From an uncultured virus (IMG/VR IMGVR_UViG_3300031707_000002) (taxonomy: Duplodnaviria; Heunggongvirae; Uroviricota; Caudoviricetes), in the IMG/VR virus record IMGVR_UViG_3300031707_000002: a DNA stretch of 20,000 nucleotides; one strand, written 5' to 3'. The notes under the pieces are model-generated. The model saw only the letters and a list, made by a program, of their open reading frames with translations, had not been told where the DNA came from and made no database searches. Made by a program: the position numbers and the translations under genes. Positions 547 through 18,084 of this stretch are shown one piece after another; within the stretch, counting starts at the first letter, position 1; the number at the start of each line of letters is the position of its first letter.

Positions 547-3072
547 CTATATAGAAGAAAACAAACCGTGGTCTATCCCACCATAATCACCCGACTCTAA
601 AACCTTCACCAACTTCAACTCTTTCCCTGTCTTTGGATCAATCCTCTTAGGCATAACCCAACTATCATCAGACTGAGCTTCCTGTCTCAACCCAAGTGTA
701 AACACTATATCCCCAACAACCTCAGCATTAGTACGGCCAGCAAAATAAGAAGGATCAGCTTCAACAGCGTTCGCACAAGCGGCAACAAGAGCATCACTAC
801 AACCCTTGTCCCCTCTTGTACCATCATCATTTACATCAGGGTGATCTACCTTCTTAGATTCTACGAAATGATTAAGGTTAAAAAACTCCCGCTCCAAAAT
901 GGAGTAGTTGTACATAATAAGTCTATCTTCATAGATCAAATCCACTACTTGAAGATAAGCAGAGTCATCCTTATCAACAGACCTTCTCGCAGCATTAAAA
1001 GAGTTTGCTGTAAATATCTGAATTGTATCTTCTGATTGGTACTGATCTAACGAAATCTTCCCAAACCTCATACCCATCTGCCGAAGTTCAAAGATAAACT
1101 TACGGATTTTAGTGAATGAAATCCTATCAGGACTCTTGGGGGCCATCACAGACAAAACAATATCAGTCTCCAATTTTGGTATTCTCAACATCGTATTCGG
1201 GTCTTCGATCATCTCCGCTATGTGAACAATAGCAAGACCCAAAGTATCATGTGTTGTTGCATAGTCAAGGTGAACATACCTCAATGCTTCATGGTGACGT
1301 ATTAGCCCCTTGTAACTCGCCTTCCCACTCTCAATCACTTTGTTAAACATCAATTCTGGTAGAAAATAATCTATAAGATGCTGTGTTGTTTTCAGGGATA
1401 TTGTAAAAGTCTCTTTTGTAAAAGGATGTCTTATCTCTGAAGAAATACACTTCTGCCAAGCATACTTCGAGGAAAACAACTTACCAGACGGTGATATAGA
1501 CACACCAGCAATATTCCTCAAAGCTCCATACACATCATCTATAAAGTTTTGCTTAAAGTCCATCGGAACTGCTACGAAATTATCTATAAACTTAGCTGGT
1601 AACTTTACCATAACATCAGACACAGCTTTATCCGTGTCCACACTCTTACCATCTGCAATCATCTTATCCCTAATATCAATAATCTTGGCTCTTATAGCAT
1701 CAGAACTCATAGGAATAAGACCATTTACAGACGTAACAATAAAAGCATCTTCATTTTCAGAACCCTGAAATACAAAGAACCTATCATTAGAGTAGTTCCC
1801 CGGCTTAACATCCCAAAGAGTCGTAATAAAAATCGTCGCTGAGTTGTACTGTCTGGCTTGCCTAATTCGAGAAGAAACAAATGAAGACTGAATTGAAGCA
1901 GACGAAATAATAGCAGAAAATCCAGGGTCATAACCCTTCATCATAAACCGAGACATACGACGGTCTGTAACTTCCCTGTAAATCTTAGCCGCCTTTGCAG
2001 CATCACCAACTGAGGCACCTGAACCACCCCTACGGTAGAAGTCAGCCTCATCCATAATACACCCAAACAAGTTCGTTGATATAACAGAGAGATTATCAGA
2101 ACCCGGAAGGATTGCTATACGTTGAGGAAATTTGAGGATGGACTTGTATGTTCGGTCACGCGGGAACTCTTTTCGGAAGTACGGTATTGAATCCACCATC
2201 GACCTAAACTGCCCAAACCCAACTCTCTCCGCATGTGTCATGTTAATTGACAAATATGCAAACACTATGTCCGTCATGTCAGACAAACCAAACAATCTCT
2301 GAGGATAGTCATAACAAGACAATTCATAAAGTTTTCTAAGCCAACACACGAAAGCGAAGGTAGTCTTACCTGCACCTATTGAATTATGAACAAAAACACC
2401 AGAGGAAAGAGCAAAGTTATGGTATTTCTCTACCTCAAAATCATACACATCCTCTTTTTCCTCCAACTTTCTAACCACCACTACTCTTACAGGACAGGTT
2501 AAAAAACTCATCAAACCATCACCCGCCAAAAGCTCTTCCGCACTTCTATAAGAACCATCATCCAACATCCACAAATGATCAGGAGTACATCGTTCTTTAC
2601 CTCCATTACTAAGAACTACCTCTACAATATCTTTTTGCAAACCTGTTTTTCTACATCTACTTGCAACACCAATGCCATAATGACCATCCAAAGAACAAGA
2701 TACTACATCAAAAACATGACCAGATTCAGCTAACTCTTTTATTGTTCTATCCCGAAGGTCATATAACCGTATCTTAGTAGAACCAACAAAACATCCAGTA
2801 ATTATAGTTTCAGGTTTTTTAGAGTCTATATAAGTTGGTAATGCTTCCTTCCAGTACGGATACAAGTCTTTCGCAAGTGATCCCAAATAATATGTGTAAT
2901 TTACCCACTTATTAACAGGTACAATCTCTTTTACCTGAGTAGCTTTTAATACACCAGTCTCTTCAGAGATTGCACGACCCAACAAGCTCTCAATAGCGGA
3001 AAATTGAGAATCACCTATACCCTCAAAGAACTTTAGGGTTTCAGGAGAGATTTTTTCTGGGATCTCTGACAT
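547..3072 (-). CDS. terL: Terminase large subunit, intein-containing
   Basis: Walker A G|SIGAGKT restored after intein removal; Walker B GCIMDEAD; RNase H-like nuclease motifs YVHLDYA and KVDHP...DKGCSDA; next to portal. Confidence 0.93.
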   Translation of the reverse strand: MSEIPEKISPETLKFFEGIGDSQFSAIESLLGRAISEETGVLKATQVKEIVPVNKWVNYTYYLGSLAKDLYPYWKEALPTYIDSKKPETIITGCFVGSTKIRLYDLRDRTIKELAESGHVFDVVSCSLDGHYGIGVASRCRKTGLQKDIVEVVLSNGGKERCTPDHLWMLDDGSYRSAEELLAGDGLMSFLTCPVRVVVVRKLEEKEDVYDFEVEKYHNFALSSGVFVHNSIGAGKTTFAFVCWLRKLYELSCYDYPQRLFGLSDMTDIVFAYLSINMTHAERVGFGQFRSMVDSIPYFRKEFPRDRTYKSILKFPQRIAILPGSDNLSVISTNLFGCIMDEADFYRRGGSGASVGDAAKAAKIYREVTDRRMSRFMMKGYDPGFSAIISSASIQSSFVSSRIRQARQYNSATIFITTLWDVKPGNYSNDRFFVFQGSENEDAFIVTSVNGLIPMSSDAIRAKIIDIRDKMIADGKSVDTDKAVSDVMVKLPAKFIDNFVAVPMDFKQNFIDDVYGALRNIAGVSISPSGKLFSSKYAWQKCISSEIRHPFTKETFTISLKTTQHLIDYFLPELMFNKVIESGKASYKGLIRHHEALRYVHLDYATTHDTLGLAIVHIAEMIEDPNTMLRIPKLETDIVLSVMAPKSPDRISFTKIRKFIFELRQMGMRFGKISLDQYQSEDTIQIFTANSFNAARRSVDKDDSAYLQVVDLIYEDRLIMYNYSILEREFFNLNHFVESKKVDHPDVNDDGTRGDKGCSDALVAACANAVEADPSYFAGRTNAEVVGDIVFTLGLRQEAQSDDSWVMPKRIDPKTGKELKLVKVLESGDYGGIDHGLFSSI
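2383..2793 (-). mobile_element. Mini-intein (137 aa, C94-N230) in terL, no homing endonuclease
   Basis: Block A CFVGSTKI, block B CTPDHLW, block F VYDFEV..HNF, block G GVFVHN followed by +1 Ser. Confidence 0.95.
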
Positions 3073-3700
3073 CTTTGTAGTTCTCTACTGCGTCAAGAAA
3101 CTTGTTTATATCTGTCTGAAGCATCAACGGAAGAAACTTTTTGATTTTCTTCTCCGACCAATCCCACCACTTAACCTGAAGAAGCCTCTCAATAATCTTC
3201 TCATCAAACCGCATCCGAATTACCTTTGCAGGATTACCACCCACAATTGCATACGATGGAACATCTTTGGTAACAACTGAGTTTGCTCCTACAGCCGCAC
3301 CATCACCTACTGTAACACCGGGAAGTATAGTCACCGAGTCACATATCCAGACATCATTTCCGATAACCACCGGACCCTTCACCCGACCGTGCCCACTAAC
3401 CCCTTCTGCCGCATCCCAAAGAACAGGGAAAGGGTAGGTAGTCACCCAATCAGTTCTATGATCTCCACCAATCATCACAGTTAAACAATCAGAAATAGAA
3501 CAAAAAGAACCTATGGTCAAGCTACCGCCGTACTCCAGCCTACCCAAGATACTCGTGCGTCCAATATATGTGTGTCTCCCCACAGAAACCCAAGGACACC
3601 GTTGTTTGAAAACATCTGTAAAAAGCACAGCATCACGACGGCACTCTATGTTGAACTTCTGCCGATCCTTCTTGTCCATTCTATCAATCTCAATAGACAT
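3041..3700 (-). CDS. CatB/Vat-like hexapeptide-repeat O-acetyltransferase
   Basis: IGSFCSI...GGDHRTDWVTTYPF...IGNDVWI...GVTVGDGAAVGANSVVTKDVP.YAIVGGNPAKVIR.RF...WWDW. Confidence 0.9.
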   Translation of the reverse strand: MSIEIDRMDKKDRQKFNIECRRDAVLFTDVFKQRCPWVSVGRHTYIGRTSILGRLEYGGSLTIGSFCSISDCLTVMIGGDHRTDWVTTYPFPVLWDAAEGVSGHGRVKGPVVIGNDVWICDSVTILPGVTVGDGAAVGANSVVTKDVPSYAIVGGNPAKVIRMRFDEKIIERLLQVKWWDWSEKKIKKFLPLMLQTDINKFLDAVENYKDVRDPRKNLS

Positions 3701-8218: not shown

Positions 8219-8971
8219 CTATACCATTCCAGCAATATCCGACAAATACAGCTTCCCACTCTTAGCAAGCAACTCAAGTATCCTCTTTCCTATTACGTTT
8301 CTCAAGGGTGACTTTATAAACTTGAAAGCAACCTTAGTCATCTCTATATCAACCCTCTGCTGCTCTTTACCATCCAATTTCTTACTATTATCTACAATCA
8401 AAAAGTTTTCCCCTCCAAACAACGTCTGAAATCCTCCTATATTTCCCTGAACCTGATTCCATGCCTGTTTTACAAAATCCTCTGGAACACTTCTCTCCCT
8501 TTCTTCATTACGCTCAATAGCTACCTCCAAAGAGGTATTTACAAAAACCATGTATGTATCATACCCTATCCTCTCCATAGTCTCTTTCTGCTTTGTAATC
8601 TTCGCTAAATCCTTACCAGTACCGTCAATCACCAAAGGTAACATACCATTCACCCAATAACCCATACGAGTATCAGTAAGACGCTTCGCAGCCTCCCTTG
8701 CTGACAACTGCTTTGCATGAATCTCTTTGTTTGAAGGGTCTATGTCAAACGGAAGATTCTCTTTTTTCAAGTTTCTCTCAAATACAACATCAGAATTTAC
8801 AAAATTAGCAAATCCAGCAAACATTTTCTTAGAGTAGAAGCTCTTGCCACTGCCCGGTCCCCCCGCCATAAACACACACTTGAACAAGTTCGCATCGTTT
8901 ATGCTCTCTTTAATCTCATTATCCTTAACATCGTCTTCATACATATCTCTAAGAAGAGCTTTTACTGCCAT
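8219..8971 (-). CDS. Zeta-toxin/AAA_33-like P-loop kinase
   Basis: VFMAGGPGSGKS, VNSD, LVIDGTG, lid motif AIERNEERERSVP. Confidence 0.85.
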   Translation of the reverse strand: MAVKALLRDMYEDDVKDNEIKESINDANLFKCVFMAGGPGSGKSFYSKKMFAGFANFVNSDVVFERNLKKENLPFDIDPSNKEIHAKQLSAREAAKRLTDTRMGYWVNGMLPLVIDGTGKDLAKITKQKETMERIGYDTYMVFVNTSLEVAIERNEERERSVPEDFVKQAWNQVQGNIGGFQTLFGGENFLIVDNSKKLDGKEQQRVDIEMTKVAFKFIKSPLRNVIGKRILELLAKSGKLYLSDIAGMV

Positions 8972-9965: not shown

Positions 9966-10286
9966 TTACTTTGATCCCACTCTCTGCTTTCCGCACATAG
10001 GACAGAATTTTACACCGTTATCTGTTGCTGTACCTTCAGAAAAACACCACTTATCCCCACACTCCGTATCATAAGAGTCTGTTGTAGAGTCGTATATCCA
10101 ATGACAAGTCTTCTTTGGCTTCGCACACACCTCTCCTTCCACTATGATCTCACCTCTTGGACGAACTGGAGGTGGAGGAGGTGGAGGAGGTGGAGGAGGT
10201 GGAGGAGGTGGAGGAGGTGCCGGAACTTTCTTCATTCGCTCCAATTTCTCTGGTGACGGTAAGGATCGTGGCGCGTTTGTAGTCAT
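9966..10286 (-). CDS. Hypothetical protein with a 17-Pro tract and C-terminal zinc ribbon
   Basis: P17; CHW...DTECG...KFCPMCGK; ATGA overlap with upstream gene. Confidence 0.75.
   Translation of the reverse strand: MTTNAPRSLPSPEKLERMKKVPAPPPPPPPPPPPPPPPPPVRPRGEIIVEGEVCAKPKKTCHWIYDSTTDSYDTECGDKWCFSEGTATDNGVKFCPMCGKQRVGSK
10167..10217. repeat. 9-bp tandem repeat encoding polyproline
   Basis: tggagg followed by (tggaggagg)x5. Confidence 0.97.
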
Positions 10287-10708
10287 TTCTCACCCACTAC
10301 CTTCAACAAATCATCCATTGTCTCTCTGTCAGCAACAACTACAAAAAGACGCAAAAGATGGTCTACAGCATCTTTAAGTTCTACCCACTTAGCTTTGAAC
10401 TTAACATAAAACTTCTCTGGTAACTCATACTCAGAATAGTTAATCTGCTTTTGCATATCAAAAATCTTTGTCTTAACAACAGCTTCAACATCAGAAACAA
10501 GTGAAGGTGAAACTACTAAACGAACTCTTCTATTCCAATACTCTACCGCTTCCTTCTCAGAGTAAACCAACCCACCACACGTAGCTCCACAATCACACTG
10601 CACTCGAAAATCACCAAGATCGTCAAGCTCCTCGTACATCTCAGGAGTACCGCCACAAAAAGGACAAGGCAGTAACCCCTCTACTGGATGGTCTGTCTTA
10701 ACACTCAT
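10283..10708 (-). CDS. Lar-family (restriction alleviation-like) zinc-finger protein
   Basis: LLPCPFCGG...VQCDCGA...EAVEYWNRR; likely start 10708 after AAGGAG. Confidence 0.78.
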   Translation of the reverse strand: MSVKTDHPVEGLLPCPFCGGTPEMYEELDDLGDFRVQCDCGATCGGLVYSEKEAVEYWNRRVRLVVSPSLVSDVEAVVKTKIFDMQKQINYSEYELPEKFYVKFKAKWVELKDAVDHLLRLFVVVADRETMDDLLKVVGEK

Positions 10709-10863
10709 TGAAACTCCTTCCACACATAACCATGATTCTCTGTGTCAGGATCTACCTTCCACTTCTCATGTTCTAACCTACCATCATCCTGGTCTTCATT
10801 CTCTCTTATATCAGGCTCTTTACCTGCCCCATGAAGAAAATTCTCGTCATCCTCGTACCCCAT
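10705..10863 (-). CDS. Small acidic hypothetical protein (52 aa, not in the ORF track)
   Basis: MGYEDDENFLHG...WKEFQ; fills the gap exactly with an ATGA overlap. Confidence 0.55.
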   Translation of the reverse strand: MGYEDDENFLHGAGKEPDIRENEDQDDGRLEHEKWKVDPDTENHGYVWKEFQ

Positions 10864-11250: not shown

Positions 11251-11469
11251 TCAACTTTTCGGGGTCTGTTGGCAATGCTTCAAAGTATGATTATCAAACA
11301 TGTACCAATAATTTCTTTTTAGAGGACTCTTAGCCTTGCTAACCTCACGAATGAAAAACTTTGCCTGCTCAAGACCTTTAATGAAAGAGTCCTGATCAAT
11401 ACCCTTTGGGGCCATATTAGCTTTACACCACTCAATTTCCTTATCTACAGCATCAAGATACTCCTGCAT
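11251..11469 (-). CDS. Hypothetical protein
   Basis: GGAGG RBS; 72 aa. Confidence 0.65.
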   Translation of the reverse strand: MQEYLDAVDKEIEWCKANMAPKGIDQDSFIKGLEQAKFFIREVSKAKSPLKRNYWYMFDNHTLKHCQQTPKS

Positions 11470-11488
11470 ATTCTTCCTCCATTATTTC

Positions 11489-11692
11489 TCAACCTATAGT
11501 GTCAAGCCGTGTTTTGGGCTTTAGCTGTTGTACGAAGTGGCGCAAATTCCGCAGTGTCCGCCACGCCTTATCCAACAGCGTGTACCAATGATAAACTATG
11601 AATGCACGCGGGAATCCTGACCAGAAATGCCACTTACCGCAATACGGATAGTTACAGAACGATTTACTTTCAATAATGAAACCTCTCCACAT
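11489..11692 (-). CDS. Cassette 8 hypothetical protein
   Basis: 67-aa ORF inside cassette 11748-11493; weak RBS. Confidence 0.55.
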   Translation of the reverse strand: MWRGFIIESKSFCNYPYCGKWHFWSGFPRAFIVYHWYTLLDKAWRTLRNLRHFVQQLKPKTRLDTIG

Positions 11693-11742
11693 AAACTTCT
11701 ACTTTCCGGCGCGGCCTATAAATTCAGGCTTTGCGCCATTTT

Positions 11743-11866
11743 GTACAACGTCTACGCAATGGGCGATAGTTTGCCCCTACAATTACACTGGCCTACCACG
11801 ACCACATGTATGCCATCGGTGTCCTCAAAATAATGAGGGCAAATTTCGGCCCTTGCGGTGTTGGGT
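11743..11866 (-). repeat. attC-like site 7
   Basis: ACCCAAC-ACCGCAAGGGCCGAAATTTGCCC...GGGCAAACTATCGCCCATTGCG-TAGAC-GTTGTAC. Confidence 0.82.
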
Positions 11867-11988
11867 GCCGGTTTGTCAACCACCACGCGGTTGGCCGCGC
11901 TCCAACCGATCTCCGCACTCACCATATCTATCTGATAATCACCAGGCCCTTGCGTCTTCCACCACTCACGGAATGTCTTCGCGGCCAT
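11752..11988 (-). CDS. Cassette 7 hypothetical protein
   Basis: GGAGGTG RBS, MAAKTFREWW...; C-terminus encoded by the attC-like site. Confidence 0.7.
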   Translation of the reverse strand: MAAKTFREWWKTQGPGDYQIDMVSAEIGWSAANRVVVDKPAPNTARAEICPHYFEDTDGIHVVVVGQCNCRGKLSPIA

Positions 11989-12015
11989 ATCACCTCCAAA
12001 GTTGACAAACTGGCA

Positions 12016-12141
12016 TCCCAACGTCTTGCGAAACGTGCGCCGTGCTACAGATTATAGTGGCACACCATACACGCTTCGCCGAGCGAATACCGCCCTGCAC
12101 GCTCACCACAGTTCGGACATGGCGCACTTTTGCTGTTGGTT
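12016..12141 (-). repeat. attC-like site 6
   Basis: AACCAAC-AGCAAAAGTGCGCCATG...CACGGCGCACGTTTCGC-AAGAC-GTTGGGA. Confidence 0.82.
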
Positions 12142-12260
12142 GTCTGTTGAGCGAGTACAGCGGTTTTCAGAGTTTGCCATGCTTCATCCGCAAGAACGAC
12201 ATTACCTACATGTATAGCACAATTTTTCTCGATAGCATCAATAGCCTCGATTGGCGTCAT
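12045..12260 (-). CDS. Cassette 6 protein with C-terminal CxxC...CxxC
   Basis: AGGAG RBS; CPNC...CMVC lies in the attC loop. Confidence 0.7.
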   Translation of the reverse strand: MTPIEAIDAIEKNCAIHVGNVVLADEAWQTLKTAVLAQQTTNSKSAPCPNCGERAGRYSLGEACMVCHYNL

Positions 12261-12296
12261 GGCATACTCCTATAATAAATTTTAGAGCGAAATTGC

Positions 12297-12356
12297 AAAC
12301 AACGTTCCGGCAAATTGCCGAAGTGTGCATCACATTTTGGCATTTGCCTGTTGTGT
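12297..12356 (-). repeat. attC-like site 5 (shortest, 60 bp)
   Basis: ACACAAC-AGGCAAATGCCAAAATGTG-ATG-CACACTTCGGCAATTTGCC-GGAAC-GTTGTTT. Confidence 0.85.
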
Positions 12357-12554
12357 GCTGTTTTTTGCGCCACCGCTGCTTTCAGAGGTTGGCGGGGATG
12401 GAACGAGCATCCAATGCGTTATTTTGCAATTATACTCGCAATGGCCAGCAATAAAATCCTGTGCGTGAATAGTCTCGATACTGCCGTTGTCAAAATGAAC
12501 TAATATCGGGCCATCGTAATCCGGGACAACACCTTCACCTTTTTTGTACCACAT
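12330..12554 (-). CDS. Cassette 5 DUF551-like protein
   Basis: AGGAGG RBS before ATG 12554; MWYKK...ITHWMLVPSPP. Confidence 0.72.
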   Translation of the reverse strand: MWYKKGEGVVPDYDGPILVHFDNGSIETIHAQDFIAGHCEYNCKITHWMLVPSPPTSESSGGAKNSTQQANAKM

Positions 12555-12591
12555 AGCCAACCTCCTATAATTTGAAAGCGCAAAAAATTGC

Positions 12592-12724
12592 ATACAACGT
12601 TTTGCTCTATTGCGACGTGCGTGACAACCACTTGTCAACCTTATTACGGTAGCACTCCGAACAACGCGGAGATTTGGTCCGCACAAAAACGCACTCTCCG
12701 CATGGCGTAATAGCGCTGTTGGGT
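12592..12724 (-). repeat. attC-like site 4
   Basis: ACCCAAC-AGCGCTATTACGCCATGCG...CGCACGTCGCAATAGAGC-AAAAC-GTTGTAT. Confidence 0.8.
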
Positions 12725-12864
12725 GCCGTGGAATGAGCATCCGCCAGATAGTGGCCACAGTCGCTGCACAAAGAATAGTTGCTGTCCCGAACTATGCATA
12801 CATCTCGCTTAATGCAATCAAGTTTTTTGTGGCCACCTATAACCTCCAAGCGAATGAATGGCAT
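12607..12864 (-). CDS. Cassette 4 Cys-rich protein (start uncertain)
   Basis: CSDC, CGEC, CSEC; the RBS-linked GTG at 12836 is one base out of frame. Confidence 0.55.
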   Translation of the reverse strand: MPFIRLEVIGGHKKLDCIKRDVCIVRDSNYSLCSDCGHYLADAHSTAPNSAITPCGECVFVRTKSPRCSECYRNKVDKWLSRTSQ

Positions 12865-13002
12865 CCCAACGATCCGCGCTACTGGTTCCGTTGCTCGATC
12901 TCACGCAGAAAATCACAAAACCTCATTTTTTGCGCATCAGACCGAGAAGAAGACAATGCCAGTTTGCGCACGAGAGCAATGGCATCTATAGCGCTGTTGG
13001 GT
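12864..13002 (-). repeat. attC-like site 3
   Basis: ACCCAAC-AGCGCTATAGATGCCATTGCTC...GAGCAACGGAACCAGTAGCGC-GGATC-GTTGGGA. Confidence 0.8.
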
Positions 13003-13103
13003 GCCGTTGTTGACAATTCCTCCGGTTTGGAGGCGCAGCGATCGCACGAACCTGCCGGTATGCCGTGCTGACACCACCCGTTGAGCAATACGCTATCATT
13101 CAT
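12879..13103 (-). CDS. Cassette 3 hypothetical protein
   Basis: GAGGAGG RBS before ATG 13103; CQHGI...CDRC. Confidence 0.68.
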   Translation of the reverse strand: MNDSVLLNGWCQHGIPAGSCDRCASKPEELSTTAPNSAIDAIALVRKLALSSSRSDAQKMRFCDFLREIEQRNQ

Positions 13104-13142
13104 TTTGCGCCTCCTCGGCATATCGACTTGTCAACTATGGCA

Positions 13143-13270
13143 TCCCAACGTCCGAGCAATGTACGCAGTGCTACTGCTTGTGACAAATCGGAACTCCGGT
13201 ACAGCAACAACTTTTGATAGGATACTTGCAGCTCGCATACAGAGAGCATTGCGTACTTGCTTTGTTGGTG
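13143..13270 (-). repeat. attC-like site 2
   Basis: CACCAAC-AAAGCAAGTACGCAATGCT...AGCACTGCGTACATTGCT-CGGAC-GTTGGGA. Confidence 0.83.
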
Positions 13271-13383
13271 GATGTAAATCTTTCCACCATAGCGTTCTGT
13301 GCGGCATTCCAGACGTTGCTATACTTCTCCATATCTCCGCCGCCGCCAACGTTGCTCCACCACTGCTCAAATGTCATTTCCAT
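13171..13383 (-). CDS. Cassette 2 hypothetical protein
   Basis: MEMTFEQWW...VWNAAQ; Cys-rich tail in the attC loop. Confidence 0.65.
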   Translation of the reverse strand: MEMTFEQWWSNVGGGGDMEKYSNVWNAAQNAMVERFTSTNKASTQCSLYASCKYPIKSCCCTGVPICHKQ

Positions 13384-13417
13384 GCCGCACCTACAATTCC
13401 AAAGAAAGGTTTATTTC

Positions 13418-13495
13418 CACCAACGTTTGCGCAACAGCCGAAGCCGCTACGCCCCCTTGCTACGCTTACGCGGTTTTGGCTTTGCGCTGTTGTTT
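13418..13495 (-). repeat. attC-like site 1
   Basis: AAACAAC-AGCGCAAAGCCAAAACCGC...GCGGCTTCGGCTGTTGCGC-AAAC-GTTGGTG. Confidence 0.85.
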
Positions 13496-13710
13496 GTTGT
13501 TGCCGTGCGCTCAACTGCTTTCTGCGCGGCGGCGATTTCGCTACGTAACGATTCAATAGCTTTGTCAACGCCGTGACCAAGGTTGTCCTTTAACATACTG
13601 TCGAAAAGCATAGAATACACTTGGTCGGTGATAATGTTTTCGGCGTTGACATAAGGATATCCAAACTCACGCATATTGCGGATAGCCGCAGAAATCAATT
13701 TATCTCGCAT
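13447..13710 (-). CDS. Cassette 1 hypothetical protein
   Basis: AAGGA RBS before ATG 13710; MRDKLISAAIRNMREFGYP. Confidence 0.72.
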   Translation of the reverse strand: MRDKLISAAIRNMREFGYPYVNAENIITDQVYSMLFDSMLKDNLGHGVDKAIESLRSEIAAAQKAVERTATTNNSAKPKPRKRSKGA

Positions 13711-13761
13711 ACATTCCTTTCCGCCGCGCCTATAATATGGTCGCACGGCAATTGCAAACAA

Positions 13762-14049
13762 CTACCTCAATAACGCACTCTCAAACCGTAGACATTTCTC
13801 TTTTTCTCTCCTTAATTCCTTTACTTCCCGAAACTTACTTGCATTATCAACCTCTAACCAAGTAACCCTCTGTTGTAACCTGTCAATCTCTTTTCTTAAC
13901 CAAGCAACCGCATCCGAAGTACCATTACGCTTATTATCCTTACTCTCACTCTCATTCTCACTTGTAAGTCTTTTTGCAATTCCGAGTAACCAAGTGTTAT
14001 CCCTGAGATACACACGCGAATTTACAACAACATCAATGCCCCGCACCAC
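13762..14049 (-). CDS. Hypothetical coiled-coil protein
   Basis: 95 aa; its TAG supplies the G of the first cassette's GTT. Confidence 0.62.
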   Translation of the reverse strand: MVRGIDVVVNSRVYLRDNTWLLGIAKRLTSENESESKDNKRNGTSDAVAWLRKEIDRLQQRVTWLEVDNASKFREVKELRREKEKCLRFESALLR

Positions 14050-14251: not shown

Positions 14252-14273
14252 TTCAACCTCACAAAATAAAACA

Positions 14274-14456
14274 CTACCCACCATAATGACAATGATGACA
14301 GCAGTACCCGTTCTTTACAAGATGGTCACACTTAGGACACCTGTGGGTCACTACCCAAACTCTATAGTCAGCATTATCCCTAAGAAGCTGATCAACCTGA
14401 AGTTCAAGACTCTCAATTCTGGTATCCTTTGACTGTCCCGGCAAACACTCAGCCAT
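14274..14456 (-). CDS. Small coiled-coil / zinc-ribbon protein
   Basis: CPKC...CCHHC. Confidence 0.65.
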   Translation of the reverse strand: MAECLPGQSKDTRIESLELQVDQLLRDNADYRVWVVTHRCPKCDHLVKNGYCCHHCHYGG

Positions 14457-15751: not shown

Positions 15752-15904
15752 CAGAAAAATAAATTAAATTAAATCTACGAAGCCACAACACCCCTATCAG
15801 TATCAGTCGCCTCTACACCCGACGGGATCTCAGATCATTTTGTAAATAATCCTCAAACAGATCCAACTTCCAATCATTTTCTGGTGATAATTCTTCATCT
15901 TTTC

Positions 15905-16117
15905 TTACCTGTGGCAATGCGTATTCATCCACTTCGCCGTATCCACCCACCCTTCAACAGTCATACTGGTAAGGTATAGGGTAAACACAGATGTCTCTGT
16001 CCACTTCTCAGTCACCCCACCCGCGAAATACCAGTATCCCTGCCCCTTTACCACCTCTACCCCACGAAACCCTGCTTTCTGGAGTGCGAGATTCACCTTT
16101 TTTACAGTTGTACGCAT
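15905..16117 (-). CDS. Hypothetical protein
   Basis: 70 aa, VKGQGYWYF; AGGGG upstream. Confidence 0.7.
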   Translation of the reverse strand: MRTTVKKVNLALQKAGFRGVEVVKGQGYWYFAGGVTEKWTETSVFTLYLTSMTVEGWVDTAKWMNTHCHR

Positions 16118-16158
16118 CCCGGTCCCCTAATTCTTTTGAATTCTCTATCGAGCAAGCC

Positions 16159-16365
16159 CTAATAGTCTAATTGCCAATTCTGTGCGGCCTCGTAAGCTGC
16201 CCCACCATCACGCTCAACATCACGCTCAACATCACGCTCAACACTTTCCTTAGCAATCAGTGAGGAATACCAGTTGGCTTCTGCCTCAGTCTCAAACCGA
16301 ACAACCGTCCCATCATCAAATCGAACATACCATCCAGACTGTTCCTGCTTAACAACACTTTTCAT
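16159..16365 (-). CDS. Hypothetical protein with ERDV repeats
   Basis: AAGGAGGT RBS; first gene after the promoter. Confidence 0.75.
   Translation of the reverse strand: MKSVVKQEQSGWYVRFDDGTVVRFETEAEANWYSSLIAKESVERDVERDVERDGGAAYEAAQNWQLDY
16206..16241. repeat. 12-bp tandem repeat x3, in frame
   Basis: catcacgctcaa x3. Confidence 0.97.
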
Positions 16366-16415
16366 TCTCTACCTCCTTAGTCTTATCAACTCTATCTTAT
16401 CTTTTTTCTCTCCCC

Positions 16416-16458
16416 TGTCTTACACCTCTAATATACGCTATTTCGCCGGTAAAGTCAA
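16416..16458 (-). promoter_or_regulatory. Sigma70-type (early) promoter
   Basis: TTGACT-17 bp-TATATT followed by AGAGGTGTAAGACA; shares an identical 21-mer with the promoter at 15709. Confidence 0.82.
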
Positions 16459-16619
16459 GTTATTTCTAATAAAAATGCAAGTAATCCTCGCTGTTTACTG
16501 CAAATAGCAACAACATCAATGAGTTACAGAGTTATTTTTTGTGGTTTTGCCGTATTTTTGAGCTATGTCCAATGATCTTACACCATCTTTCTGCATTACA
16601 TCACATATTACTGCCCTTA

Positions 16620-16892
16620 TTACTTCTTGTCTACATCACCATCAGCTTCCTTAATAACATCCTCCAAATCCTCACCCTCTACATCTGAAATAACATCATC
16701 TGAATCCTCCACCGGCAACGGCTCATCAAACGCTACCGCAAATGCAATATCTACCGCCTCCTCTATACACCCCAACATCTCATAGTAATACCCCGTGTGC
16801 CGCTTGACAAACCCCGTTACATCTACCCACTTGTCAAACCTGTGACACGCCTCCCGCTTCGCATACTCTACTTCCCCACGCTTACATCCCAT
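16620..16892 (-). CDS. Hypothetical protein with acidic tail
   Basis: 90 aa; AGGGGGT RBS. Confidence 0.72.
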   Translation of the reverse strand: MGCKRGEVEYAKREACHRFDKWVDVTGFVKRHTGYYYEMLGCIEEAVDIAFAVAFDEPLPVEDSDDVISDVEGEDLEDVIKEADGDVDKK

Positions 16893-16930
16893 ACAATACC
16901 CCCCTATGATACCTGATCAACGCTACATCA

Positions 16931-16966
16931 ACGGTAATCTGATTGACGGTAATCTGATTGACGGTA
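16931..16966. repeat. 15-bp tandem repeat x2.4, intergenic
   Basis: acggtaatctgattg x2 + acggta; internal palindrome AATC-T-GATT. Confidence 0.95.
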
Positions 16967-17092
16967 GTTTTTATCAAAAATCAACATTTTTTGACACTAG
17001 ACGCCCCACCGTTTTTACGACCCCCGCCAACAGGCCCCATAGGGTAAGTCGTCAAGTATATTTTTGAAAAAGAATAGAAGAACTGTCTACCC

Positions 17093-17422
17093 TTACCGTT
17101 CCCCCACCGTAGCATCAACAAGACACTCCCTTATACACTCTTCAGGATGATAACCTATCACCCTATCTACCTGCCTACCCTCTTTGTAAATCACCAATGT
17201 AGGCACTGCTGTTATGTGATGTAACTTAGCTTGTTCAAAAAACCCTTCGTGATCCTCTACATTTACTTTATAGAATTGAATTGAAGGAAACTCTTTTTCA
17301 AACCCCTCTATTATAGGGAGAACTTTATTACAAGGAGCACACCATCCTGCATGAAACAAGATCGCCACAATACCCTCACCATGTGTCACCTCATCATACT
17401 GCAACTCTTTTAATAATCTCAT
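17093..17422 (-). CDS. trxA: Thioredoxin
   Basis: FHAGWCAPC active site, FYKVNVE, ITAVPTL, 109 aa. Confidence 0.9.
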   Translation of the reverse strand: MRLLKELQYDEVTHGEGIVAILFHAGWCAPCNKVLPIIEGFEKEFPSIQFYKVNVEDHEGFFEQAKLHHITAVPTLVIYKEGRQVDRVIGYHPEECIRECLVDATVGER

Positions 17423-18084
17423 GGTGTCACCTTCCTTACTTCCTTCTTGTGTTCCTTACTTTCAGCCTTCTTGCCAAACATGTGTGTGGACATCAAATCC
17501 GCGCCATGTATCAAAGCTGAAAACTTTGTCATCCCACTACCATCACTCATATAACTGTACGGGCTTGACAAGTTACAAGACCAACCTCCGTGATGGTGTG
17601 CAACCGCTTCTATTTGAGTGTCACTTAAAATTATCCCATGTAAAGCACAAAGCTGAGTTACCTTTGCACTTTCATCAGGATATGTAATACCGTCTGCTAC
17701 TTCCCAAATCTGTCCACCATATTTTGCTTGCCTTCTGTAATCACCCTCCGGCATATCCTTGTACCTGTATAATTTGTCAAGATCATGCACATAAGCCACA
17801 AGTATTACATCGTCCAATGTAAAATCAATAGGATTAACTGCAAGTTTTTCACAATAGGCTGTTACATTATAGTAACTCTGAATCGCCAACATCATCACTT
17901 CCTTTACATGATCCACATACCCACCTACCCAAGCGTGATGATGCCGCTTTGACGCGGGCCAATAAATAATCCGATCCTTCAAACTAGAATGCATCAACGG
18001 CAAACTCTCCCTCAACTCCTGATCTAAAATCATGTTGAGCATCTGCGTAATCTGATCGTAACTACTCAGTACCGTATCTGACAT
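17419..18084 (-). CDS. HD-domain phosphohydrolase (YhaM/Cbf1-like)
   Basis: PASKRHHHAWVGGYVDH, YVHDLDK, AHHHG, IHGADLMS. Confidence 0.85.
   Translation of the reverse strand: MSDTVLSSYDQITQMLNMILDQELRESLPLMHSSLKDRIIYWPASKRHHHAWVGGYVDHVKEVMMLAIQSYYNVTAYCEKLAVNPIDFTLDDVILVAYVHDLDKLYRYKDMPEGDYRRQAKYGGQIWEVADGITYPDESAKVTQLCALHGIILSDTQIEAVAHHHGGWSCNLSSPYSYMSDGSGMTKFSALIHGADLMSTHMFGKKAESKEHKKEVRKVTP

Follow-up and report, generated by a model that had tools for sequence, protein, structure and literature searches.

A candidate integron-like array of eight small gene cassettes in a large uncultured phage, and related arrays in other phages

Integrons are the model for the collection and shuffling of accessory genes by bacteria; what has so far been reported from phages is limited to fragments of bacterial-type integrons. 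The subject of this report is a block of eight small units on the minus strand of a 20,000-nucleotide (nt) stretch of DNA, referred to as the window, from an uncultured tailed phage of sediment (IMG/VR record IMGVR_UViG_3300031707_000002), which was originally predicted from the letters alone to be a phage-borne, integron-like array of gene cassettes. In the integron platform, the integrase gene intI is divergent from the cassettes, and the attI site and the Pc promoter lie in between. Recombinases of the Xer type act on the pdif modules of Acinetobacter plasmids and in CTX-type phages, where a single-strand hairpin is integrated by XerCD.

The attC sites of integron cassettes are described in PMC5027507 as imperfect hairpins of 57-141 bp whose terminal structure varies, with an AAC/GTT R box, an unpaired spacer of 5-6 nt in each arm, and 2-3 extrahelical bases near L'', opposite the bottom-strand AAC and 6 bp apart. 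PMC9892861 reports 17 integron fragments (CALINs) in phages and recombination by IntI1 of five of the six phage attC sites tested. In T4-type phages, promoter early stem-loop elements (PeSLs) place a consensus sigma-70 early promoter and a stem-loop terminator between open reading frames (ORFs), a precedent that PMC2839356 documents, mini-circles included. A literature search, with most subscription journals outside its reach, found no account of the long-arm GTT/AAC system described below or of its Xer-like recombinase.

The block is interpreted here as an array of eight mobile cassettes belonging to a phage-borne, integron-like recombination system that has no recombinase of its own, a reading to which we assign a probability of about 0.65.

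Array layout, pairing of cassette ends and strand asymmetry

The window comprises bases 29227-49226 of a 167,660 bp virus record that has direct terminal repeats and was rated complete. The array runs from 13762 down to 11490 and contains eight units, c1 to c8, each opening at GTTG and having an internal CAAC(A). Sites were located with a detector for CAAC followed by 1-2 nt and a stem, then the opposite stem, 4-5 nt and GTTG. All array coordinates are given on the minus strand.

11490..13762 (-): whole array, c1-c8, from the G of TAG^TTG at 13762 to GTTG at 11493-11490
13762, 13424, 13149, 12870, 12598, 12303, 12022, 11749, 11493 (-): GTTG cores (position of the G)
13492, 13267, 12999, 12721, 12353, 12138, 11863, 11530 (-): internal CAAC(A) cores
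13759..13762 (-): B0, array start; GTTG overlaps the TAG stop of an upstream ORF of 95 amino acids (aa), forming a TAG^TTG junction
13421..13492 (-): site 1, c1/c2 boundary, 72 nt, CAAC...GTTG, detector score 12
13146..13267 (-): site 2, c2/c3 boundary, 122 nt, score 13
12867..12999 (-): site 3, c3/c4 boundary, 133 nt, score 11
12595..12721 (-): site 4, c4/c5 boundary, 127 nt, score 10
12300..12353 (-): site 5, c5/c6 boundary, 54 nt, score 12; ORF stop in the loop
12019..12138 (-): site 6, c6/c7 boundary, 120 nt, score 10
11746..11863 (-): site 7, c7/c8 boundary, 118 nt, score 13
11490..11530 (-): site 8, variant terminal site of c8; short stem, closing GTTG abuts the phage flank
13742..13762 (-): c1 5' arm, pairs with 13489-13509; 21 nt, 86%, score 15
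13404..13424 (-): c2 5' arm, pairs with 13264-13284; score 15
13125..13149 (-): c3 5' arm, pairs with 12996-13019; score 16
12578..12598 (-): c5 5' arm, pairs with 12350-12370; score 15
12001..12022 (-): c7 5' arm, pairs with 11860-11880; score 17
11730..11749 (-): c8 5' arm, pairs with 11527-11546; 18 Watson-Crick and 2 A·C of 20, score 16

Over the whole 167,660 bp genome, the detector returned seven sites of 54-133 nt with scores of 10-13, every one in the array and at a unit boundary. Elsewhere in the genome there was a single match, with a score of 8, and within the array two extra overlapping alternatives scored 8-9; each of five shuffled genomes gave one match scoring at least 8. The predicted arrangement of eight cassettes and seven imperfect palindromes was confirmed, and is stronger than first stated.

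The six longest inverted repeats in 11300-14000 were formed by the arms at a unit's own start and own internal core (18-25 nt, 81-89% complementary). Ungapped pairs matching at 17 or more of 21 positions were found four times in the genome (observed, 18/21), always within the array, and not once in any of 20 shuffles. The anchored own-pair scores for c1 to c8 were 15, 15, 16, 8, 15, 6, 17 and 16, against 4-9 for the next boundary (9 x 9 matrix), and among the 40,320 permutations (mean sum 52) only the real assignment reached 108. The feature is real, and far from what chance would give. The original claim that the two ends of a cassette are complementary, and match better than those of the neighbour, was borne out by this test, and shuffled controls, which had been named as a possible refutation, reproduced the complementarity in 0/20 cases. 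The 18/20 match given for the ends of c8 was correct. As to the other match lengths originally listed, six units pair far beyond them and c4 and c6 have just the short match listed, 8-11 nt.

Six ORFs read the CAACAG core as AAC-AGC, whereas c5 and c8 read it as CAA-CAG; it is therefore conserved as nucleotides and not as a protein motif. Chance, or a paralogous protein motif, was considered as its source and was ruled out by the two reading frames and the permutation test.

The site expected at a circle junction was reconstituted by joining the 3' site of each cassette to its own 5' arm, and was folded with DNA parameters. Each reconstituted site formed one long imperfect hairpin (-18 to -41 kcal/mol), and loops ranged from 3 nt to branched regions of about 90 nt. 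For c1, c2, c3, c5, c7 and c8, the z-scores of the bottom strand were -6.4 to -9.3 when reconstituted and +0.5 to -6.2 in the linear context. The non-coding (bottom) strand was the more stable one in seven of the eight reconstituted units. The stems in the window contained 251 Watson-Crick pairs and 22 A·C pairs on the coding strand, which are G·T on the other, versus 2 G·T (p 3.6e-5). The same bias was present in 16 further loci, where arm stems (50) gave 70 vs 12 and hairpin stems (58) gave 75 vs 10 (145 vs 22 in total). The direction of the wobbles is uniform and opposite to what an mRNA structure needs, which argues for a folded DNA strand. Thermodynamics and sequence together argue that the non-coding strand is the one favoured to fold, as in attC.

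This asymmetry bears on an alternative, in which the units are PeSL-like regulatory cassettes: the leaders and hairpins would be promoters, terminators or RNA-processing structures of early genes, and the mosaicism would arise by homologous or microhomology phage recombination, as in T4-type phages. The likeness is considerable, in that small ORFan genes lie in a plastic region of a large phage and are flanked by repeated stem-loop motifs, the hairpins come after stop codons, and movement by mini-circles has been proposed, with the documented precedent noted above (PMC2839356). Moreover, a TRTAGG motif lies 28-31 nt past the boundary GTTG in 6/8 window units (e.g. 13729-13734 and 12565-12570) and in 21/61 units of other phages, and its distance of 17 from a TTGCAA in the arm resembles that between -35 and -10 elements. 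However, TRTAGG is without the final T of a -10 element, and promoter-like and terminator-like sites showed no clear enrichment: a sigma-70 scan gave 7 promoter-like sites versus 5.3 +/- 2.5 expected, and there were 3 terminator-like sites versus 2.4 +/- 1.5. The better pairing of the non-coding strand is not predicted by mRNA structure. Whereas PeSLs are promoters and terminators that recombine by sequence similarity, the arms here are specific to each cassette, and the start of the ORF lies between them, an arrangement for which a promoter or terminator has no need. The regulatory explanation is considered unlikely, and the breakpoints and recombinases described below also count against it.

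A second alternative, an ordinary integron fragment, has to be weighed against the geometry of the sites. It holds that these are canonical attC cassettes of a bacterial integron, moved by an IntI of the host. As in integrons, one-gene cassettes stand in tandem, all in the same direction, with imperfect hairpins whose structure is kept while the sequence varies, and with inverted AAC/GTT cores. The AAC and GTT are paired at the hairpin base, the loop is variable, the length is 54-133 nt, the two ends of each cassette are complementary and the non-coding strand is calculated to fold better, all integron traits according to PMC5027507; the CALINs and IntI1-recombined attC sites published for phages (17 and 5/6, PMC9892861) favour this explanation as well. 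The sites nevertheless depart from attC: 1) the spacer is 1-2 nt on the side of the coding-strand AAC and 4-5 nt on the GTT side in all seven sites, not 5-6 nt per arm, 2) a single extra base is present in 5/7 window sites, on the arm opposite to that of the attC extrahelical bases, and 3) own-end pairing extends over 18-25 bp and is cassette-specific, compared with an R box of about 7 bp. Extra bases in 58 hairpin stems elsewhere were found 48 times on the 3' arm of the coding strand and 16 times on the 5' arm. The array opens at G^TT and has a complete site at its far end, which fits a coding strand that is the "top" strand, as in integrons, with the bulge geometry mirror-imaged.

The original claim of an integron cassette signature thus held for the cores, length, loop and strand preference, and did not hold for the spacer and the extrahelical bases. 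With canonical attC geometry and the IntI-specific insertion considered below unmatched, the array is an integron-like variant rather than an integron.

Related arrays in other phages and the positions of breakpoints

The arm pair common to c3, c4 and c7, used as a two-part search pattern, matched one other viral contig, L097, which belongs to phage G001 (L110-L112), a complete phage of 48,148 bp with a G+C (GC) content of 58%. The G001 array, also on the minus strand, extends from 2947 through the origin to about 43285 (about 7.7 kb, 16% of the genome) and has at least 20 units of roughly 260-360 nt. One of these is without a clear ORF, another has two ORFs, and at one junction two arm-bounded units abut without a second hairpin between them. 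G001 and the window phage have no DNA in common and, at 1e-3, no protein except for a 20-aa cassette ORF match; their arrays have only scaffold pieces in common (18-69 nt, 72-100% identity). In bacterial and archaeal genomes, the arm-pair pattern gave eight matches in diverse phyla, none with sites, where about eight were expected by chance by our own arithmetic, a result that, coming from a single narrow pattern, leaves room for bacterial carriers.

A degenerate pattern for the leader (scaffold) matched 70 loci, 25 of which had same-strand clusters of sites and/or arm pairs. These 25 loci lie on 23 contigs, 21 of them new, of 5-213 kb. A pattern derived from a recurrent G001 site family matched G001 itself only. 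A 15-mer of two cassettes matched 91 stretches, and the 82 loci examined (552 kb), which served as the control for the detector, contained no array other than that of L001, a near-clone of the window phage. The arrays of the family had GC contents of 0.40-0.56 and their flanks 0.27-0.59, the pattern that a common cassette pool would give. Here, arrays have so far been found only in viral contigs, unlike integrons.

AAC...GTT is the basis of all seven sites in the window and of 73 more in other loci. An AAC immediately precedes GTT in 30/73 sites outside the window, so that AAC adjoins GTT on both strands; in the window, the boundary core is often the 6-bp palindrome AACGTT (13421-13427, 12595-12601, 12300-12306). 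In some G001 units the opening core is GTTC or GTTA and the closing one GAAC or TAAC, which indicates that the invariant core is GTT/AAC and that its fourth base is part of the cassette downstream. Immediately ahead of the boundary G, the base was C at 7/7 internal boundaries of the window and in 69/73 sites outside it, and A at the array start. This covariation of the fourth base, together with a base before the G that stays with its upstream partner, confines the exchange point to GTT, the point at which integron cassettes are exchanged.

Near-identical blocks in G001 end at the same cores. A 129-nt block, 99% identical and extending exactly from CAAC to GTTG, was present on two otherwise different cassettes, a 69-nt site family occurred in four copies that each end at GTTG, and two units had in common a 56-nt leader (93%) and a 117-nt trailer (97%) while their ORFs were unrelated from start to stop codon. 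Since such blocks stop at cores of 3-4 nt with unrelated sequence beyond, there is no homology on which to recombine, contrary to what PeSL-type exchange supposes.

Breakpoints were also read from assembled contigs of sediment metagenomes. In run X5, a contig from a close strain (depth 304, 6 differences) carried the right flank and c8 and diverged at 11750, the c7/c8 boundary, beyond which it had 32 nt of another cassette end. The run also contained a 342-nt contig corresponding to c1 from core to core (13421-13762, depth 740) and a 55-nt contig bridging c1 to the left flank (depth 286); c2-c7 were covered by no contig of the 300-fold depth class, a gap that was given no weight as evidence. 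Cassette c2 alone (13146-13426) was found inside a 1,238-nt contig, a contig from run X6 had only the GTTG-to-CAAC part of c2, joined to the internal core of c6, and one from run X2 had the end of site 6 in common, followed by a different cassette. The arrays and the close strain thus differ by whole cassettes or modules with breakpoints at GTT/AAC, in support of the predicted shuffling with exchange at G^TT. The indel breakpoints, whose position relative to GTT had been proposed as a check, mapped to GTT/AAC cores, some of them to the internal AAC inside ORFs and not to GTT.

The ORFs of the eight cassettes are as follows.

13447..13710 (-): c1 ORF, 87 aa, no family
13171..13383 (-): c2 ORF, 70 aa; N-terminal half related to c7
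12879..13103 (-): c3 ORF, 74 aa
12607..12864 (-): c4 ORF, up to 85 aa, start codon uncertain; CxxC...CxxC tail
12330..12554 (-): c5 ORF, 74 aa; weakly DUF551-like, phrog_924 match
12045..12260 (-): c6 ORF, 71 aa
11752..11988 (-): c7 ORF, 78 aa
11489..11692 (-): c8 ORF, 67 aa; stop TGA spans the terminal GTTG

Pfam and PHROGs gave no function for the eight proteins; the weak DUF551/phrog_924 likeness of c5 had an E value of 2.2e-6 in one search and 0.0073, below the cut-off, in another. The c2 and c7 proteins are alike in their N-terminal halves only (E 5e-6). Similarly, c6 and a cassette ORF of contig L173 have N-terminal halves that are 43% identical (E 3e-7) up to the core and unrelated C-terminal halves, which makes the internal core a breakpoint as well. 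Among 61 units, with a median ORF of 83 aa, 48 have an ORF that crosses the internal core, in 11 the ORF terminates ahead of it, and 2 are without an ORF of 30 aa. As most cores are located within ORFs, the same machinery would swap heads and tails in frame besides reordering genes. In this the cassettes differ from those of integrons, and the 48/61 ORFs that cross the core speak against an ordinary integron fragment.

Recombinases at array heads and the genomic surroundings

No tyrosine recombinase was detected in the whole genome of the window phage (PF00589, E <= 1), nor was a serine recombinase found in it, nor a match at E <= 10 to A1, an alignment of the array-head recombinase family that did detect its positive control. 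Among 21 other array-bearing records, two (L173 and L181) encoded a tyrosine recombinase above the cut-off, as did 0/4 of those at least 90% complete. Most arrays described here are therefore without an integrase, as CALINs are, and the absence of the enzyme from most arrays also suits the PeSL alternative. The L181 enzyme (373 aa), which lies 1.4 kb after the array and is preceded by an excisionase-like helix-turn-helix protein, was read as an ordinary lysogeny integrase and set aside.

The L173 ORF at 2343-3239 encodes a 298-aa Xer-like protein. It scored 123 bits on PF00589 and 175 bits on a XerA-type model, below the equivalog cut-off of 220, and its best PDB matches were the XerC-like 4a8e and the XerA 5hxy. 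On the integron-integrase model TIGR02249 it scored 114 bits (cut-off 265) in two stretches; between these, residues 208-219 and the mid-part of the integron-integrase models (TIGR02249/PRK15417) were unmatched. The enzyme has nine close relatives of 274-284 aa (43-53% identity), and the columns R156, K183, H245, R248, H271 and Y280, which we take to be the catalytic residues of a tyrosine recombinase, are invariant in the 10 family members. To judge from its sequence, the enzyme at the array heads in L173 and L188 is a Xer-type tyrosine recombinase.

The L173 gene ends 37 nt before the array. The gap contains a perfect inverted repeat of 8 bp with GTT...AAC as its limits, and AAG-TAG^TTG comes after it. 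Relatives of the enzyme were found in two other viral contigs. L188 (43% identical) has the same palindrome, a TAG^TTA junction and two cassettes before the contig ends, and in L187 (47% identical) the remaining 61 nt of the contig contain the palindrome and TAG^TTG. In L173 and L188 the recombinase gene has the direction of the cassettes, and the TAG^TT junction lies 3-4 nt past the palindrome, which is itself at or just after the 3' end of the gene. More distant homologues of the enzyme had arrays at 0/11 loci. A TAG^TT(G/A) array start was present in the window, G001, L173, L187, L188, L118 and L131, with the TAG stop codon overlapping GTTG in G001; the TAG^TTG form recurs in arrays without a recombinase, namely those of the window, G001, L118, L131 and probably L113. 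In the window, 13762-13800 (-) reads TCTACG-N11-CGTTATT-GAGG-TAG^TTG, a weak likeness to the palindrome and junction at L188 7790-7835 that may be due to chance.

The original suggestion that the recombinase is encoded elsewhere agrees with these results, as there is none in the genome of the window phage and a dedicated enzyme adjoins arrays of the same family in other phages. The adjacency of a tyrosine recombinase of the Xer/IntI superfamily to some arrays is a further likeness to integrons. In contrast to the integron platform, the recombinase is 274-298 aa long and without the IntI insertion, it is co-directional with the cassettes, and there is an entry junction that either overlaps the 3' end of its gene or comes immediately after it. 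The low score of the enzyme on the integron-integrase model, the unmatched IntI-insertion region and the eight bacterial matches, without sites and equal to chance, add to the geometry in making an ordinary integron fragment improbable, slightly more so than the PeSL explanation, which in turn does not account for a specific recombinase subfamily at array heads. The Xer modules introduced above resemble the arrays in their Xer-family recombinase, short inverted cores and movement of discrete modules, and the CTX-type system in its use of a folded single strand. They differ in relying on the host XerC/D and fixed dif-like sites of 28 bp, whereas here long cassette-specific hairpins stand in tandem arrays and the enzyme is a single, phage-borne Xer-like protein.

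Hairpin-dependent single-strand transposition by HUH enzymes (IS200/IS605 or REP/RAYT type), or miniature inverted-repeat transposable element (MITE)-like units with terminal inverted repeats, would explain why inverted repeats and a conserved tetranucleotide bound the units, and why folding is strand-specific. However, a search of the genome at E <= 1 detected no Y1/HUH transposase, the arm sequences differ from unit to unit and so would escape recognition by a sequence-specific transposase, there is no pattern of target-site duplication, the 3 nt before GTT being variable, and the enzyme at array heads is a tyrosine recombinase and not a HUH enzyme. Transposition of this kind is regarded as very improbable.

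The sizeable ORFs of the window are all on the minus strand and include an intein-bearing large terminase, a Lar-like protein and a thioredoxin. The terminase large subunit (547-3072 (-), 841 aa) has an Intein_splicing domain at residues 196-230, and its relatives in deposited phages are 26-29% identical at best, aligning from about residue 186-247 onward. Near the array, at 8219-8971, 10283-10723 and 17093-18084 (-), are accessory genes for zeta-toxin/AAA_33 kinase-like, Lar-like restriction-alleviation, thioredoxin and HD-domain proteins. The array had no blastn match among 50,697 deposited phage records, and no phage on deposit was similar in its DNA. With the flanking proteins as anchors, the sole match among viral contigs was the near-clone L001, 99.4% identical and with the same array; metagenome contigs gave the phage's own contig and a 3.5 kb fragment ending before the array, and nothing else. 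Variation was also seen upstream of the array: L001 is unaligned at 15823-16384 and 88.9% identical over 16384-17600, a second variable spot, and in the close strain of run X5 12 nt are deleted at 13944, in the 95-aa ORF, and 28 nt at 14252-14281 are replaced by 632 other letters. The block is GC-richer than its flanks, as predicted, with 0.45-0.54 in the array versus about 0.41 in the flanks (genome 0.415), and the GC skew also shifts across the array.

Proposed mechanism and significance

Several observations weigh against a mobile, integron-like cassette system, 1) the own-end pairing of c4 and c6 is limited to 8-11 nt, 2) the detectors and thresholds were designed on this window, 3) the search patterns were taken from the arrays, which biases the family sample toward similar scaffolds, 4) some wobbles fall at conserved arm positions, so that the events are not all independent, 5) the extra bases lie on the AAC-bearing arm of the better-folding strand, the opposite of attC (PMC5027507), 6) no circle junction or excision product was present among the assembled contigs, which, being assembled, cannot show circles or rare events, 7) a tyrosine recombinase is absent from the window phage and from five further records that carry arrays and are at least 95% complete, and 8) the link to the enzyme comes from two contigs (L173, L188) and one that ends too early (L187).

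In the mechanism that we propose, a cassette, read on the coding strand, starts inside the invariant GTT and continues with a cassette-specific arm of about 20 nt, a short leader, often with TRTAGG and a ribosome-binding site, a small ORF and the complementary arm ending in AAC. A second imperfect hairpin, a spacer of 4-5 nt and the G of the next GTT complete it. On joining of its two ends, the arms of a cassette would stack with the second hairpin into one long imperfect hairpin, and the strand selected to fold would be the non-coding one. Exchange would take place within GTT/AAC, either between folded sites or with the entry junction TAG^TTG, while exchange at the internal AAC core, usually inside the ORF, would swap the heads and tails of proteins. 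The catalyst would be a compact Xer-like tyrosine recombinase, encoded directly upstream of the array in some phages of the family, and the window phage, which is without the enzyme, would have to receive it in trans. The architecture with its statistics, the strand asymmetry, the occurrence in unrelated phages, the core-bound breakpoints and the position of the recombinase next to arrays are observations; catalysis by this enzyme, folding of a single strand, circular intermediates and supply in trans are what we infer for the system.

We see even odds for the broader proposition that phages have an integron analogue of their own, a structure-specific GTT/AAC system with long hairpins, a compact Xer-type recombinase that is not IntI, a cassette pool extending across unrelated phages (flanks of 27%-59% GC), and in-frame head and tail swaps yielding new small proteins. 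If true, it would account for the way in which large phages assemble their plastic, ORFan-rich regions and exchange them between unrelated lineages, and would provide a second, independent example of structure-specific DNA recombination beside IntI/attC. The compact recombinase and its sequence-free hairpin sites might then serve as tools, and the tiny proteins encoded by the cassettes, which number in the hundreds and probably act in host takeover or counter-defence, would form a catalogue for functional screens.

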